From Nitrosomonas europaea (lineage in GTDB: Bacteria > Pseudomonadota > Gammaproteobacteria > Burkholderiales > Nitrosomonadaceae): a stretch of 32,000 nucleotides of DNA. The stretch covers positions 1 through 32,000 of the forward strand of contig NZ_FUWK01000022.1 of the NCBI RefSeq assembly GCF_900167395.1. The letters are read 5' to 3'. The translations under genes and the position numbers were made by a program. The notes beneath the pieces are model-generated. The model did no database searches. It was not told the origin of the DNA and saw nothing but the letters and a program-made list of their open reading frames with translations. This document shows positions 1,286 to 8,795 of the stretch, piece by piece (the stretch's first letter is position 1; each line of letters opens with the position of its first letter).

Positions 1286-2575
1286 ATGTTCACTTCATTG
1301 AGACTGACCCACTTCAAAGCCTGGCAAGACACCGGCATGATTACGCTGAAACCAGTTACCGTTTTGCTGGGCACCAATTCATCAGGTAAATCCTCACTTA
1401 TCCAGAGCCTGCTGCTGTTGAAACAAACGGTGCAATCTCCGGATCGTTCGATCCACCTCAACCTGGGTGGAGATGAAATCAGTGATTTGTTCGATTTTGG
1501 CCATTTCGATGAGGTAATAAAACACGGTACATCTTCTCCGCGCGAGTTCTCGATCACATTTACCTTCCGGACTGCCGGACAATCACGAATAAACAGCGGC
1601 GAGTTTTCCTGCGGCTATCGGCAAACGGCAACTGGCGTCACTGCGATTCAGGAACTGGTATTGTCCGCTGCTGAACATCGTTTCCGCGCGATACGGCGAG
1701 AAAAGGGAAGCTACGCAATCTTCACTGATGATGAAACCCGACCGCGCGCCAAAGGCGAGCAGCTTGCACCGGAGCGTTCCGTTGCACTCCCCGCCGCCGC
1801 CATCGTCGCGCTGGGCAGCGCTGGCGCTCTCGCTGAAGATATTAGTCTTGCCATCCGGCGCGAACTGGAAAATATCTGCTATCTGGGCCCGCTTCGACGC
1901 AAACCGGAACGTGATTACGTATGGAACAAAACGACTCCCGGTCAGATCGAGAGTGACGGTCACCGTGCCATGGATATACTGCTCTCCAGTGTACTGATCA
2001 AAAATGACAAACAGAATGAAATTCTGGATGAGGTTTCCTTCTGGCTGAACAGAATGAAAGTGGCAGAGAGGCTGGAAATCCGGCAGGTGGGCCGCTCCGC
2101 CCGCTACGAAATCGTGGTGCATCAGGGTGGAACCATCACCAATCTGCGTGATGTCGGCATGGGTGTAGCGCTGGTGCTGCCGGTACTGGTGGCAGGCTAT
2201 TTTGCTCCGGCAGGCAGTACCGTCATCCTGGAAGAACCCGAAGTGCATCTTCACCCGCTGGCACAAGCGGTACTGGCCGAATTTTTCGTGGCACTGAGCC
2301 GTTCACGCCGCATCCAGTTCATCGTGGAAACCCATTCGGAACATCTGTTCCGCCGCATGCAAACACTGATTGCGCGCAAAAACACCTCCGTCGAACAAAT
2401 TGCCCTGCTATTTGTGGAAAGTGCTGCGGGGAATGCGGCATTGCGCAGGCTGGAAGTCGATGAATTCGGCCGGGTGAGCAACTGGCCGCAATACTTCTTT
2501 GGCGATGCACTGGGTGAAACACGCGAACAGGCGCGATTGATGCACACTCGCCATCAGGAGCAGCACAGAAAATGA
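1286..2575 (+). CDS. ABC/SMC-like AAA ATPase (AAA_15/AAA_21 type) with DUF3696-like C-terminus; no fused nuclease domain
   Basis: 429 aa. Motifs: Walker A GTNSSGKS (K35, nt 1388-1390), YLGPLR, signature-like DVGMGVALVLPVLV, Walker B TVILEEPEVHLHP, H-loop ETHSEH, and a C-terminal NWPQYFFGD tail typical of DUF3696 proteins. The stop overlaps the next start (ATGA, 2572-2575). Confidence 0.85.
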   Translation: MFTSLRLTHFKAWQDTGMITLKPVTVLLGTNSSGKSSLIQSLLLLKQTVQSPDRSIHLNLGGDEISDLFDFGHFDEVIKHGTSSPREFSITFTFRTAGQSRINSGEFSCGYRQTATGVTAIQELVLSAAEHRFRAIRREKGSYAIFTDDETRPRAKGEQLAPERSVALPAAAIVALGSAGALAEDISLAIRRELENICYLGPLRRKPERDYVWNKTTPGQIESDGHRAMDILLSSVLIKNDKQNEILDEVSFWLNRMKVAERLEIRQVGRSARYEIVVHQGGTITNLRDVGMGVALVLPVLVAGYFAPAGSTVILEEPEVHLHPLAQAVLAEFFVALSRSRRIQFIVETHSEHLFRRMQTLIARKNTSVEQIALLFVESAAGNAALRRLEVDEFGRVSNWPQYFFGDALGETREQARLMHTRHQEQHRK

Positions 2576-3114
2576 AACCGCGTTATGTGGTGGACACCAA
2601 TGTGCTGATCACCGCCAGTGTGGCTGATCCGGTTGCCCCAAAGGACATCGACGCGACACCGCAGGATCCTGCACTCAGATTTCGGGTGTGGCAATGGCTG
2701 GTCGAATTTGAAAGCAGTCCGGCACGACTGGTGCTCGATTCCGCCGGTAAAATCAAGGAAGAATACGATCGCAAGCTCGGATTCAACGATTACGGTATTC
2801 AGGTCGTAATCCACAAATGGAGCATGGCGGCAGTGGATAATGTGGATGTGCAATACGATACGGACGGCCATGCTGTGCTGCCACCGCCGCTGGATTCAGT
2901 GGTCCACGATCTGGCCGACCGGAAAATGGTTGCCGCTGCACTGGAAGCGCAAAAATGCCACGGCGAGAGTGCGATCGCCTTCGCCGGTGATACTGACTGG
3001 CATGACTGGGAACAAACGCTGATACAAGCGGGGCTTTCTATCGAACCCATTATTGAAGGCTGGTCACGCGCAAAACATGCAGAGAAAGCACACAGAAAAC
3101 AAAACCATGACTGA
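2572..3114 (+). CDS. PIN-like (PIN_3-like) domain protein, predicted metal-dependent ribonuclease
   Basis: 180 aa. The N-terminal YVVDTNVLI contains D8 (nt 2593-2595), and a central acidic stretch reads KIKEEYDRKL. HDLADRKMVAAALEA and AFAGDTDW match the later acidic PIN motifs (D..D..hhA.A and t.D.D). It has 4-bp and 8-bp overlaps with its two neighbours. Confidence 0.7.
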   Translation: MKPRYVVDTNVLITASVADPVAPKDIDATPQDPALRFRVWQWLVEFESSPARLVLDSAGKIKEEYDRKLGFNDYGIQVVIHKWSMAAVDNVDVQYDTDGHAVLPPPLDSVVHDLADRKMVAAALEAQKCHGESAIAFAGDTDWHDWEQTLIQAGLSIEPIIEGWSRAKHAEKAHRKQNHD

Positions 3115-3805
3115 TTTTTTCCGTTTCCCCAATACTCCTCACCTGCTCTGGCTGGGACAAGGCCAGCCCAGAGATGACAAGATTCTATCCGATGCCGAAA
3201 TAGCGGCCTTGCTGCAGGATGAAGTGCTGATCGAGGAAAAACTGGATGGCGCCAACCTGGGCATTTCGCTGGATGAACATGGCGAGCTGCGCGCCCAGAA
3301 TCGCGGCCAGTATCTGCCACAACCTTTTTCCGGCCAGTTTTCCCGCCTGAACAGCTGGCTGGGCCAGCACGGAGAAATCCTCAAACACACTCTGACACCG
3401 GAGATGATTCTATTCGGCGAATGGTGTGCCGCCCGGCATTCGCTCGACTATAACAAGCTGCCTGACTGGTTTCTGTTGTTCGACGTTTACGACCGGGAAG
3501 CAGGCAAGTTCTGGAGTGTGGAGCGGCGCAACCAGCTCGCTCAGAAATTGAATATCACCACCGTACCGCTGCTCAAACGCACAAAGATAACGTGCAACCA
3601 GCTCGTCCAGCTGCTCGATGATGCACAAAGCCGTTACCGCAGTGGCAAGGTCGAAGGTATCGTCATTCGCTGTGATTCGCCTCTCTGGTGTGAAAGCCGG
3701 GCGAAACTGGTCAACCGGGAATTTGTTCAGGCTATCGAGGATCACTGGCGCAGCCGGTCAATCGAGTGGAATCTGGTGCACGCCGGATCAGTAAAACGCT
3801 CATGA
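3107..3805 (+). CDS. ATP-dependent RNA ligase family protein, nucleotidyltransferase domain only (Pfam RNA_ligase/Rnl2-DraRnl-like)
   Basis: 232 aa from the ATG at 3107, which overlaps the PIN stop as ATGACTGA. The track ORF from 3053 is an in-frame upstream extension inside the PIN gene. Motif I is EEKLDGAN (adenylylation Lys45, nt 3239-3241), followed by FGEW, EGIVIR (motif IV-like) and AKLVNREF (motif V-like Lys). Confidence 0.8.
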   Translation: MTDFFRFPNTPHLLWLGQGQPRDDKILSDAEIAALLQDEVLIEEKLDGANLGISLDEHGELRAQNRGQYLPQPFSGQFSRLNSWLGQHGEILKHTLTPEMILFGEWCAARHSLDYNKLPDWFLLFDVYDREAGKFWSVERRNQLAQKLNITTVPLLKRTKITCNQLVQLLDDAQSRYRSGKVEGIVIRCDSPLWCESRAKLVNREFVQAIEDHWRSRSIEWNLVHAGSVKRS

Positions 3806-6081: not shown

Positions 6082-7416
6082 TTACTCCCCCCCTTTGTTC
6101 TCACCGAAAGCTGATTTACTTACTATCCGGCGGAACCGTCTGATTGCGAAAAACACGATGGTCACGATGACCGGTATCGCGATACCGGTCATCAGTTCGA
6201 TATCGATATTCAGCCCTGCCGCCTTGGCGGCTTTCAGCCCGTAACCGGTAATACCGAGCAGGTAGTAACTCAGTACGACCACTGACAGGCCCTCCACTGT
6301 CTCTTGCAGACGCAGTTGCAGATACGCCCGGGTATCCATCGACCTGAGCAGATCCCGGATTTGCGATTCCATCGAGATATCCACCCGGGTGCGCAGCATC
6401 GAAGTCGCCCGTTCTACACGTAGTGATAGTGTTTCAAGTTTGGACCAGACCAGATCAAAGGTACTCATGGCTGAGGTAACCCGCTGTTTTCTGAATTCGT
6501 ACAACATCTGCAGTCCCTCGATACGCTCTTCACGCAATTCTGTGATTCGCTGCTGCATGATCGTGTGATATGTCTGCGATGCACTGAAACGATGACTGGA
6601 CTGAGCAGAGATTCTTTCGATTTCTGTAGCCAATGCAGTCAGTTTTACCAGTAGCAGCTGTTCATCTTCGATAGAGTTGGGCGCGATATTGGTTGATATC
6701 AGCTCTGTCAGTTGATCGCCATATCTTTCCAGCTGGGGAATGATTTCGCGCGTCATGGTCATCGGCAGAATCGCCAGCATACGATAAGTCTCGATCTCGA
6801 GCAGACGCTGTACCAGCCTGCCAACCTGGCGGCTGCGCAAGTTATCATCATGAATCAGAAAACGGGTAAATCCATCCGGATGAATCTGGTTATCACTCCA
6901 GACACTGGCGCTCCCTGCCGAAACCTTGGAGCCGATCACCGTGTTCGAGGAAAACAGGGAGGACAGCTCACTCATGCTGCGGCTGGGGCGCCTGCGGTCT
7001 TCCAGTGCAATATGCGTAGCGACCAGCACTTCTCCTGGCAGTTTCTCCAGCCATTCCGGAGGAACATGGGCGATGGCAGGCTGAGCAAAAGGTACCTCGA
7101 ACGGGCCTTCACTATAGAAAGTATAAGTGGAATATTCCGTATGCCGTTCCCAACGCAATTGAAAACCACCCAGTTCGACACTCAACTGATCGAAGGCGCC
7201 ATTGAGCATCCGGATACCGAAATGTTCACAAATCTGGACGATCAGCTCACGCTCCCTGTTCACCCACTGTCGGTCTGAAAGCAAGACCAGATGAGAAAGC
7301 TGTAACGGGATATTGACCAGTTCATAAACATCTGCATTCAGCTCGGTATGCAGTAACCGTCGCTCGGAATACTCCGGCAGACCCAGCGGCCCGTATTTCA
7401 ACAAATTGTCGGTCAT
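6082..7416 (-). CDS. DUF3422 domain membrane-anchored protein of unknown function
   Basis: The start is taken at MTDNLLKYGPLGLP (ATG complement at 7414-7416). The track ORF extends to 7542 but would then overlap the upstream TauE gene. It has the RWERHTEYSTYTF motif and two C-terminal TM helices, as in DUF3422 proteins. Confidence 0.8.
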   Translation of the reverse strand: MTDNLLKYGPLGLPEYSERRLLHTELNADVYELVNIPLQLSHLVLLSDRQWVNRERELIVQICEHFGIRMLNGAFDQLSVELGGFQLRWERHTEYSTYTFYSEGPFEVPFAQPAIAHVPPEWLEKLPGEVLVATHIALEDRRRPSRSMSELSSLFSSNTVIGSKVSAGSASVWSDNQIHPDGFTRFLIHDDNLRSRQVGRLVQRLLEIETYRMLAILPMTMTREIIPQLERYGDQLTELISTNIAPNSIEDEQLLLVKLTALATEIERISAQSSHRFSASQTYHTIMQQRITELREERIEGLQMLYEFRKQRVTSAMSTFDLVWSKLETLSLRVERATSMLRTRVDISMESQIRDLLRSMDTRAYLQLRLQETVEGLSVVVLSYYLLGITGYGLKAAKAAGLNIDIELMTGIAIPVIVTIVFFAIRRFRRIVSKSAFGENKGGE

Positions 7417-7453
7417 AATCTGAAAAATTTTTCTAATAATTGAAAATCCGGTA

Positions 7454-8254
7454 CTAATTCCATAAATCCAGCAACAACTTGGTTCCCAGCAAATAGAGCA
7501 AACCTGCAAAAATTTTTCTGAGTAACGCTGCCGGCAGAACATGTGCCGCTCTGGCCCCCAGCGGTGCTGTCACCGTACTCGCCAACCCCACCGTGATCAG
7601 AGCAGGCAGATAAATATAGCCCAGTGCATAATCCGGCAGCGGCTGTGTCAGCAGCAGACCATTGATGGCATAGCCCGCCGCACTGGCCAGCGCAACCGGA
7701 AACCCGACAGCGGCTGCCGTACCGATGGCATGGTGCAACCGGATCTGGCAAGCAGTGAGAAACGGTACCGTCAGTAATCCCCCGCCAATTGCCACCAGGC
7801 TGGATAACGCACCGATCACGCTGCCGGCAGCAAACATACCGGCTTTTCCCGGCAGAACATGACCCGTACCCGGCTTGAGATTGAGCCACATTTGCGTGGC
7901 TGCGAAATAGATGAACAAAACGAAAATGATACCCAATATCCGGCTCGACAACTGGCCGGCCAGAGTGGAACCAGCCAGCGCACCCGCAATGATTCCAGGC
8001 GTAATATAGCGCACGATCCACCAGTTCACGGCACCATGGGCATGGTGAGCACGCAGGCTGGAAATCGCGGTCAGGGTAATGATCGCTGTCGTCGTTCCCA
8101 GTGCGATATGCAGAATATGGTCAGCCGGAAAACCCAGAGACATGAAAACGGAAGCCAGTATCGGCACCATCAGCAGACCGCCGCCAATGCCCAGCAATCC
8201 CGCAAAGAAACCGACTGCACTCCCTGTCAGCAGGTAAACCGGCCATGCTTCCAT
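7454..8254 (-). CDS. TauE/SafE family sulfite/anion exporter (DUF81)
   Basis: 266 aa polytopic membrane protein with duplicated GxxxGLLGIGGG-type motifs (GLLGIGGGLLMVP, LVAIGGGLLTVP). Confidence 0.9.
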   Translation of the reverse strand: MEAWPVYLLTGSAVGFFAGLLGIGGGLLMVPILASVFMSLGFPADHILHIALGTTTAIITLTAISSLRAHHAHGAVNWWIVRYITPGIIAGALAGSTLAGQLSSRILGIIFVLFIYFAATQMWLNLKPGTGHVLPGKAGMFAAGSVIGALSSLVAIGGGLLTVPFLTACQIRLHHAIGTAAAVGFPVALASAAGYAINGLLLTQPLPDYALGYIYLPALITVGLASTVTAPLGARAAHVLPAALLRKIFAGLLYLLGTKLLLDLWN

Positions 8255-8333: not shown

Positions 8334-8795
8334 TCACGACTGCAGCTTTGCTTCGATGAATTTCCATTCCGATGGATCGACGGGAGTAATGGACAGCCGG
8401 TTACCTTTCTGCAGGATACGCATACCGGCCAGTTCAGGATAGCTGCGCAGCTCCCTAAGGGAAAGCAACCGGGTTTTACGAAGAAACCGGACTTCGACAT
8501 TGAACCAGCGCGGATTCTCGCGCGTCGATTTTGGGTCGAAATATTTGCTGGCCGAGTCGAACTGTGTTTCATCCGGATAAGCAAGCCGTGAAACTTCGAC
8601 GACGCCGGCAATACCTGGTTCGGGGCAGCTCGAATGATAGAAGAAAACCAGATCTCCAGGCTGCATCTGGTTGCGCATGAAATTACGCGCCTGATAGTTG
8701 CGCACACCATCCCAAGGTACGGTCTGCCCTGGCCGAGCAGCAAGGTCATCGATACTCACTTCCGACGGCTCTGATTTCATCAGCCAGTAACGCAT
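8334..8795 (-). CDS. EVE (PUA-like, DUF55) domain protein
   Basis: 153 aa. MRYWLMKSEPSEVSIDDL...WDGVRNYQARNFMR...GDLVFFYHSS is the typical EVE-domain N-terminus. Confidence 0.85.
   Translation of the reverse strand: MRYWLMKSEPSEVSIDDLAARPGQTVPWDGVRNYQARNFMRNQMQPGDLVFFYHSSCPEPGIAGVVEVSRLAYPDETQFDSASKYFDPKSTRENPRWFNVEVRFLRKTRLLSLRELRSYPELAGMRILQKGNRLSITPVDPSEWKFIEAKLQS

Follow-up and report, generated by a model that had tools for sequence, protein, structure and literature searches.

The window analysed here is a stretch of 32,000 nucleotides (nt) from Nitrosomonas europaea, covering positions 1-32,000 of the forward strand of contig NZ_FUWK01000022.1. Three genes at 1286-3805 on this strand encode, in this order, an ABC-type ATPase, a PIN-like nuclease and a single-domain RNA ligase, each gene overlapping the next. 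Translation of the trio is probably coupled, because the start and stop codons overlap. The ligase gene, which is the main subject of this analysis, is an integral third member of a conserved three-gene operon. Its features are the following.

3107-3805, forward strand: RNA ligase of 232 amino acids (aa), single-domain, ATP-dependent, of the 'FPxTxH…RDD' clade (PF09414).
3239-3241, forward strand: codon AAA of Lys45, the motif I KxDG nucleophile (adenylylation), within EEKLDGAN; invariant in homologues.
3413-3424, forward strand: motif III FGEW, F103-G-E105-W106 (homologue alignments).
3653-3670, forward strand: motif IV EGIVIR, E183-G184-I-V-I-R188 (homologue alignments).
3698-3706, forward strand: motif V R198-A-K200, followed by L-V; R and K are invariant.
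3716-3772, forward strand: conserved C-terminal tail of the ligase, F206…H213-W-R…W221-N222, predicted to be disordered (alignment and AlphaFold).
1286-2575, forward strand: ABC-type ATPase of 429 aa with a C-terminal DUF3696 helix (Pfam, PADLOC).
2572-3114, forward strand: PIN-like nuclease of 180 aa (PADLOC profile of the PIN protein of HEC-03, Hma-embedded candidate 03; conserved acids).
2572-2575, forward strand: ATPase/PIN start-stop overlap ATGA; the same 4-nt overlap is found in most of 63 related loci.
3107-3114, forward strand: PIN/ligase start-stop overlap ATGACTGA of 8 nt; the ligase start overlaps the PIN stop.

The Pfam family RNA_ligase (PF09414) spans residues 38-200 of the 232 residues of the ligase, with an E-value of 2.8e-37 (cutoff 27 bits), and a Pfam scan found no second domain in the protein. 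Motif I (K45-L-D47-G48) corresponds to nt 3239-3250, and motifs III, IIIa (FD, residues 125-126), IV and V stand in the expected order. Lys45, FGEW, EGIVIR and R198/K200 are all invariant among 20 homologues with 61-100% identity, and most of the motifs are also retained in distant fused relatives (35-45% identity). The tail (residues 204-232, nt 3716-3805) has invariant residues of its own, namely F206, Q208, H213-W-R215, R217 and W221-N222. In the AlphaFold model, which was built on a homologue alignment, the predicted local distance difference test score (pLDDT) falls below 50 for residues 211-232, and this tail may fold only upon binding RNA or a partner.

The model as a whole is one alpha/beta domain, with a mean pLDDT of 84 and a predicted template-modelling (TM) score of 0.82. 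When it was compared with the PDB by Foldseek, ligases for RNA or tRNA held ranks 1-40, at E-values from 7e-9 to 5e-5, with the lone exception of an Aquifex structure, 3qwu, which was deposited as a putative DNA ligase. The best match is NgrRnl, of the Rnl5 type (E 7e-9, query TM 0.63-0.66), other matches include Pab1020 and PpaRnl (both Rnl3), REL1, T4 Rnl2, T4 Rnl1 and Trl1, and unambiguous DNA ligases first appear at an E-value of about 1e-4. Pab1020 is also the top sequence match in the PDB (E 1.9e-4). The structural alignments to known RNA ligases cover the nucleotidyltransferase (NTase) part only, with target TM values of 0.35-0.58 and identities of 14-22%. Neither an OB domain, nor an Rnl2-type C-terminal domain, nor an Rnl3/Rnl5-type N-terminal domain was detected in the ligase by Pfam, AlphaFold or Foldseek, and the Rnl3 profile TIGR01209 scores it at 39.5 bits, below the cutoff of 136.9. 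In its accessory domains the protein does not fit the Rnl2, Rnl3 or Rnl5 subfamilies. On its motifs and modelled fold, the protein is assigned as an RNA-type ligase reduced to the NTase domain, and not as a DNA ligase or a capping enzyme.

Homologues of the ligase number 3972 at an E-value of 1e-5 or better and are mostly about 230 aa long; some of them are named 'DNA ligase' by NCBI. An exhaustive search of cluster representatives returned 2659 relatives. Besides the forms of about 230 aa, many long relatives fuse the ligase module to AAA_33 kinase-like, 2H-SAK, PTP-SAK or His_Phos domains, and the nearest relatives that do not stand alone thus carry kinase, 2H and phosphatase healing domains. 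The FPxTxH…RDD N-terminus and an F..HW..K..N tail are common to the window ligase and to these fusions; both therefore belong to the ligase module itself and did not arise as adaptations to the PIN protein or the ATPase. By sequence, the ligase belongs to an RNA-repair clade that normally comes with end-healing activities, and the subfamily in the window has a nuclease and an ATPase instead. The lack of healing modules is a real, derived feature, since the nearest non-stand-alone relatives carry them. Among the long proteins, P0139, P0144, P0147, P0157 and P0186 are very long and combine RWD, AAA_33 kinase, 2H-SAK and PTP-SAK domains in an order that differs among them; two ligase-like stretches are present in some, and several look eukaryotic.

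These results agree largely with an earlier note on this DNA, made from the sequence alone, which had described a product of 232 aa consisting essentially of an NTase domain with Lys45 at 3239-3241 and the motifs listed above. The RNA ligase character that the note had assigned is borne out by the fold comparison, in which NgrRnl is the closest structure and the protein does not cluster with DNA ligases or capping enzymes. The description 'minimal' fits as far as the single domain is concerned, but it is less special than it seemed, as a module of about 225 aa is the standard ligase unit of the whole clade.

Relatives of the ligase are also found apart from the other two genes. Only three matches were obtained in 2.9 million viral contigs (L085, L086 and L087). 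One of them, at L085:8001-8711 (IMGVR_UViG_3300033074_001257), is 64% identical to the window ligase and has phage-type neighbours, namely a DNA methyltransferase gene (PHROG, 3e-153) and genes for RNase H and a DprA-like protein, with no ATPase or PIN gene nearby. This orphan ligase could serve in phage counter-defence by resealing RNA nicks made by nucleases. A sister arrangement is seen in the Pseudomonas aeruginosa plasmid pF051 (L082, 5956-7974), where the gene after a distant ligase of 286 aa (about 35% identity) is annotated as an AAA family ATPase of 380 aa and is not a PIN gene.

The gene directly upstream of the ligase encodes the 180-aa protein, which matches the PADLOC HEC-03 PIN profile at an E-value of 2.2e-7. 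Its family comprises 3083 database proteins (profile search, E-value of 1e-3 or better), and the Pfam family PIN_3 is matched by 9 of 36 members, at best with 3.7e-4. Across 67 sequences taken from related loci the conserved positions are D8 (in DTNV), D56, E64-Y65, K82, D113, D116, D/E140 and W143. D8, E64 and D116 are invariant and position 140 is always D or E, and the same holds for 36 database homologues; in the alignments these acids correspond to the canonical D-E-D-D of PIN nucleases. The AlphaFold model has a pLDDT of 90 and the expected alternation of beta strands and alpha helices, and its top Foldseek matches are PIN, NYN and HARP proteins (SMG6, 3ix7, 7e8o (HARP), PAE2754 and VapCs). 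Searches of the PDB sequences with the protein and with its family profile gave chance matches only. Although the fold evidence is weak, the protein is likely a divergent PIN nuclease, predicted to be catalytically competent, and likely the RNase effector of the trio. VapBC membership was rejected, the gene upstream of PIN being the 429-aa ATPase and not a small VapB.

The ATPase matches the Pfam families AAA_21 (1.3e-22), AAA_15 (4.8e-20) and DUF3696 (6.7e-12), and among PADLOC profiles the HEC-03 ATPase (7.4e-82), PDC-M55A (2.8e-59) and Menshen NsnB (4.5e-58); AriA profiles match at 2.7e-23. The Walker A motif G29-x4-G34-K35-S36, the signature-like D289-G-x-G293, the stretch E316-x-P-E319-x-H-L-H323 and the H-loop region E348-x-H-S-E-H353 are invariant in 63 orthologues. 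It is likely the sensor or regulator subunit. HEC-03, an ABC ATPase combined with a PIN protein, protects E. coli from phages, needs both genes to do so and is toxic when induced (bioRxiv 10.1101/2024.01.29.577857). The PADLOC-DB labels PDLC04147/PDLC04148 are swapped with respect to this preprint: HEC-03A is a 159-position PIN profile and HEC-03B a 458-position ATPase profile in the database, and HEC-03A is the ATPase and HEC-03B the PIN protein in the preprint.

The conservation of the trio was assessed by scanning one genome per GTDB species, which yielded more than 557 loci, from which the best 80, ranked by ligase similarity, were kept and sorted by tblastn, profile hidden Markov models and adjacency tests. 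The ATPase, PIN and ligase genes are adjacent and co-directional, in this order, in 66 of the 80, and five more have PIN followed by the ligase without the ATPase (L005, L006, L007, L078 and L072, the last with limited upstream sequence), so that PIN lies directly upstream of the ligase in 71. The remainder comprises three orphan ligases (L043, L056, L079), one locus disrupted by an insertion sequence (IS) with a truncated PIN gene (L068, Xanthomonas translucens), one degraded locus (L061) and four cut by contig ends (L015, L019, L044, L063). Where the operon is complete (63 loci), ATPase and PIN usually overlap by 4 nt, and the PIN-to-ligase spacing is between -8 and +14 nt in 60 of these loci; overlaps of 4 or 8 nt are typical of the trio. 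The linkage of PIN and ligase is not due to chance. The interpretation given in the earlier note is upheld in part: these counts bear out the genomic linkage behind its nuclease-ligase pairing, and the neighbour that it had called a PIN protein is supported as a PIN-type nuclease by the conserved catalytic acids and the HEC-03 profile. Likewise, no healing gene was found among the open reading frames (ORFs) scanned in the 32-kb window, as the note had stated. 'Stand-alone' holds for the polypeptide and fails for the gene, which is part of a conserved three-gene operon, and the idea of a dedicated nuclease-ligase pair is plausible but not new, having been predicted in 2016 according to a later summary (PMC5499597).

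The hosts are mainly Beta- and Gammaproteobacteria, together with some Alphaproteobacteria, Gemmatimonas, Chloroflexota and one Rhodococcus plasmid. The trio occurs on chromosomes and plasmids, often within restriction or defence islands; in about 12-15 loci a large Eco57I/MmeI-type methylase gene lies upstream and an HNH_2 gene downstream. In a Pseudomonas/Thiopseudomonas group it is flanked by ATP synthase and antiporter genes, and on an Aeromonas salmonicida conjugative plasmid it lies near AbiEii and Hok/Gef, with a recombinase gene directly downstream. The trio behaves like a self-contained mobile cassette with a preference for defence islands. A blastn search with the Lelliottia trio against complete E. 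coli genomes found nothing. At L068:4395-6702 (Xanthomonas translucens DSM 18974) an opposite-strand ORF of 338 aa, transposase-like judging from its translation alone, separates the truncated PIN gene (153 aa) from the ligase gene, and the cassette appears to be decaying. On an Acinetobacter soli plasmid (L083, CP119212.1, 5001-7658) a frameshift splits the ATPase into AAA and DUF3696 coding sequences, helicase and N6-methylase genes lie upstream and an HNH endonuclease gene directly follows PIN, which makes it a Hma-embedded version without the ligase. Among 150 cluster representatives, a search for Rosetta-stone proteins joining the ligase to PIN or to the ATPase gave only P0137 (389 aa), in which a complete ligase follows the first ~120 residues of the ATPase; this protein, probably the product of a deletion or of misassembly, was not used.

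The two-gene modules of PIN and ligase (L005:5399-6699, L006:5384-6699, L007:5391-6681 and L078:5429-6714) have neither an ATPase nor a small antitoxin-like (VapB-type) ORF upstream. They sit among housekeeping genes, such as those for an HrpB-like helicase and a YicC-like protein, and look like a toxin-antidote pair cut to its core. An apparent ATPase remnant in L007 (hmmsearch 1e-24) was discarded as a composition artefact, as it runs antisense to the HrpB-like gene and aligns poorly.

In the window, the proteins scanned were those of ORFs of at least 150 aa and of small neighbours of the operon. No polynucleotide kinase/phosphatase, Hen1, RtcA/B or 2H gene was found among them, and a Pnkp/Hen1, T4 Pnkp-Rnl1 or RtcAB repair operon was rejected on these grounds. 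The remaining scanned genes are ordinary housekeeping genes: QueH, DUF202, catalase, DUF3422, TauE, EVE, ZapA, NadB, aminotransferase, PGM, NAD synthase, M48 peptidase, MacAB-like pump, Mrp antiporter, GST, GGDEF-EAL protein and VTT protein. The queH gene lies upstream of the trio and the DUF202 gene downstream, both in the window and in two other Nitrosomonas loci (L001, L003). Scans for promoters and terminators flanking the operon gave background levels only, and no tRNA genes were found in the window. A few kb downstream, among the housekeeping genes, are a stand-alone EVE-domain protein (8334-8795, reverse strand, E 4.7e-56) and a DUF3422 protein (6082-7542, reverse strand, E 2.4e-154), neither of which shows an evident link to the cassette.

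Taken together, the reading that we favour, with moderate confidence, is that the trio forms a self-contained conflict module, probably directed against phages, in which the ATPase gates the PIN nuclease and the ligase reseals the nicks made by PIN as an antidote. The ATPase would hold or gate PIN via its DUF3696 tail, as predicted for the NsnB-NsnC pair of Menshen, and a phage cue would lead it to release or activate the nuclease. The metal-dependent PIN protein would then nick a conserved RNA of the host, tRNA or some other RNA of translation being the likeliest target, and leave 5'-phosphate/3'-OH ends. ATP-dependent ligases need healing enzymes mainly after the action of metal-independent RNases, whose ends are incompatible (PMC7824862), and the missing healing modules fit a partner nuclease that leaves 5'-phosphate/3'-OH ends. 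Such ends are left on tRNA by P2 OLD, an ABC-ATPase-coupled metal nuclease, and single P2 OLD nicks are sealed by T4 Rnl1 or Rnl2 without healing (PMC12445682). The co-expressed ligase could accordingly be pictured as resealing the nicks directly by Lys45-AMP chemistry, without a kinase or phosphatase, and as a built-in antidote or reset that would limit self-damage from a leaky PIN and allow recovery. The pairs of PIN and ligase among housekeeping genes, with no ATPase or VapB antitoxin, are what would be expected if the ligase keeps an active PIN tolerable.

Several points weigh against this reading. PIN-like folds can also cut DNA, and the window PIN protein has no Pfam or NCBIfam match of its own, its Foldseek matches being weak (best E 0.035, TM 0.3-0.43). 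The isolated NTase domain of T4 Rnl2 is reportedly unable to complete nick sealing, and a 232-aa ligase consisting of this domain may need a partner or its disordered tail for full ligation. Within the same loci, pairwise identity is highest for the ligase (median 62%, minimum 53%), followed by the ATPase (median 46%, minimum 28%) and PIN (median 36%, minimum 17%), a pattern that speaks for the antidote role in that it fits a conserved host RNA substrate set against a fast-evolving sensor and effector, but the 80 loci were selected by ligase similarity, so that the ligase looks more conserved than it is. No ligase is needed for defence by HEC-03, and its paper mentions no RNA ligase (bioRxiv 10.1101/2024.01.29.577857). 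Acinetobacter soli plasmids carry a PIN protein of the same family (profile E 1.4e-68) together with the ATPase and no ligase, and since this ligase-free pair exists, the ligase is an optional add-on to the ATPase-PIN module. Defence as such can thus dispense with the ligase, because both HEC-03 and the Acinetobacter PIN family do without it, and we infer its benefit to the module. The literature searched contained no experimental study of the ligase-bearing trio or of the ligase clade.

An alternative that we consider unlikely makes the ligase part of the weapon, in that PIN would cut twice, or cut foreign or host RNA, and the ligase would join wrong ends or circularise fragments, so that dead-end RNAs arise and the damage cannot be undone. 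When T4 RNA ligases act on tRNA that P2 OLD has cut twice, the products are indeed a circular 12-mer and an aberrant tRNA of reduced length (PMC12445682), Pab1020, an Rnl3 ligase and the closest sequence relative in the PDB, circularises RNA (PMC12153264), and the gene overlap suggests that PIN and ligase are co-expressed. However, HEC-03 defends by ATPase and PIN alone, the relatives of the ligase occur in repair-type fusions, and stable pairs of PIN and ligase among housekeeping genes, with no antitoxin, are hard to reconcile with worsened damage.

The ligase could instead be a general RNA repair enzyme that acts on other damage, caused by phage or competitor nucleases or by stress, and is merely carried in the island. 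Such a role is suggested by ligases of this family that occur as orphans, with neither PIN nor ATPase (L043, L056, L079), and by those in phage-type contigs (L085, L087). It is nevertheless improbable, given how tight the linkage is: PIN is directly upstream in 71 of the 80 loci, with overlapping or nearly abutting genes. Moreover, the ligase is not accompanied by healing enzymes, which the ends left by most foreign ribotoxins would require (PMC7824862).

A bolder conception, kept as a long shot, is that PIN and ligase do not offset one another but form an ATPase-gated machine that cuts and rejoins: it could, for instance, excise a few nucleotides or a stem from tRNA or phage RNA and then reseal the molecule, or circularise fragments, so that programmed rewriting of RNA would itself be the immune effector. 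In a milder version, the pair would be a novel type of toxin-antitoxin system with an RNA-repair antitoxin, which reverses the product of the toxin and does not bind the toxin.

It is quite doubtful that no RNA sealing takes place at all and that the Lys45-AMP chemistry serves to adenylylate a target, in the form of AppRNA ends or AMPylation of a partner, as a signal or block. The ligase is an NTase domain alone with a conserved tail predicted to be disordered, and NTase domains on their own are reported to fall short of completing nick sealing. All motifs are invariant, however, including motifs IV and V, which are needed for the later steps, and the same module of about 225 aa is the sole ligase unit in kinase, 2H and phosphatase fusions, whose logic requires sealing.

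That the pair acts on DNA, by FEN/PIN-like nicking and DNA sealing as an accessory to restriction-type neighbours, is very improbable. A subset of loci does embed the trio between DNA methylase and HNH genes, and some homologues bear the name 'DNA ligase' at NCBI. But both fold and profile comparisons point to RNA ligases, DNA ligases matching far more weakly, an OB domain is missing, RNA end-healing domains are found fused to relatives, and the PIN family matches the VapC-type PIN_3 and not FEN families. Finally, a housekeeping RNA-processing pair akin to HARP and Rnl3, which co-occur and co-localise (PMC12153264), is suggested by the same neighbours being kept in the Nitrosomonas europaea/eutropha lineage (L001, L003), but it has very little to commend it in view of the patchy distribution, the variable flanks that include plasmids and defence islands, the homology of the ATPase to that of a validated defence system, the fast divergence of ATPase and PIN and the IS insertion in one locus (L068).

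If the ATPase-gated PIN nuclease with a ligase antidote is true, the trio would amount to a defence module with a repair enzyme of its own, with breaks that need no end healing and are reversed by a dedicated ligase. Arrest of translation would in that case be an immune state that can be reversed, and not suicide. The module would also make a large, uncharacterised clade of RNA ligases of about 225 aa accessible to biochemistry for the first time, a clade shared with eukaryotic and bacterial 'Swiss army knife' repair proteins. From the orphan ligases in phage contigs it may be surmised that phages could turn this enzyme against tRNA nickases of the PIN or TOPRIM type. The locus is of value as a clean and testable case of a defence module that has RNA repair built in, the association itself having already been reported.

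Among known systems, the first to be compared is the conflict system with PIN, RNA ligase, ATPase and HNH components that Burroughs and Aravind predicted in 2016, in which, as summarised in one sentence of PMC5499597, the ligase neutralises the nuclease. As far as this summary goes, the window resembles that system in having a PIN_3-type, VapC-like PIN protein, an ATP-grasp-type RNA ligase and an ATPase in one operon, and we infer from it that the two belong to the same family. It differs in that the window has no HNH gene, although HNH_2 follows the ligase in about 11-15 related loci. The association, and the idea that the ligase neutralises the nuclease, are thus already in the literature as comparative genomics, on the evidence of that summary. 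The further proposal of the earlier note, that PIN end chemistry accounts for the lack of healing enzymes, refines this idea reasonably but is not a discovery.

With HEC-03 the trio shares an ATPase gene that adjoins or overlaps the PIN gene, both proteins matching the HEC-03 profiles (7.4e-82 and 2.2e-7), and some related loci lie between methylase and HNH genes, as do Hma-embedded systems; unlike the two-gene HEC-03, the window adds as third gene a ligase gene that overlaps the PIN gene. For Menshen, the prediction is that NsnB uses its DUF3696 tail to contact the PIN-like domain at the N-terminus of NsnC, a protein whose PIN domain is catalytically inactive and fused to a C-terminal nuclease effector (PMC12065111). 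The window likewise places an NsnB-like ABC ATPase with a DUF3696 tail beside a PIN-fold protein, but this protein keeps its catalytic acids and has no fused effector, and a ligase is present. No match to NsnA (ParB-DUF262) was found among the window proteins, queH lying upstream instead. Menshen membership was rejected for the lack of NsnA and the intact PIN acids, the NsnB-like ATPase being the one shared part. P2 OLD and PARIS AriA/AriB also couple a sensor ATPase to a metal-dependent nuclease, but their nuclease is a TOPRIM protein and no ligase is encoded, whereas the window has a PIN nuclease and a ligase.

On the side of the ligase, the 'Swiss army knife' or kinase-fused ligases share the FPxTxH…RDD N-terminus, motifs I-V and the HW…N tail at 35-45% identity, but they carry the healing domains in the same polypeptide, whereas the window ligase is devoid of them and pairs with a nuclease. 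The NTase fold and its motifs are also common to Rnl5 (NgrRnl), Rnl3 (Pab1020, MthRnl, PpaRnl) and Rnl2 (T4 Rnl2, REL1), from which the window ligase differs by the absence of the N-terminal OB-like domain of Rnl5, of the N-terminal, dimerisation and C-terminal domains of Rnl3 and of the C-terminal domain of Rnl2. HARP, a PIN_5 protein-only RNase P, and the Rnl3 ligase co-occur and co-localise (PMC12153264), which likewise links a small PIN-like RNase genomically to an ATP-dependent RNA ligase; however, this pair involves other PIN and ligase families, has no ATPase, is usually encoded by divergent genes and is found in extremophile hosts (PMC12153264), whereas the genes of the window trio are co-directional. 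Lastly, T4 Pnkp/Rnl1 against PrrC, bacterial Pnkp/Hen1 and RtcAB are similar in setting RNA repair against a ribotoxin in host-virus conflict. They repair 2',3'-cyclic-phosphate/5'-OH breaks with healing enzymes or RtcB chemistry, none of which is encoded in the window, and in conflicts of the T4/PrrC type the nuclease and the repair enzymes stand on opposing sides, whereas the window trio has both in one operon.

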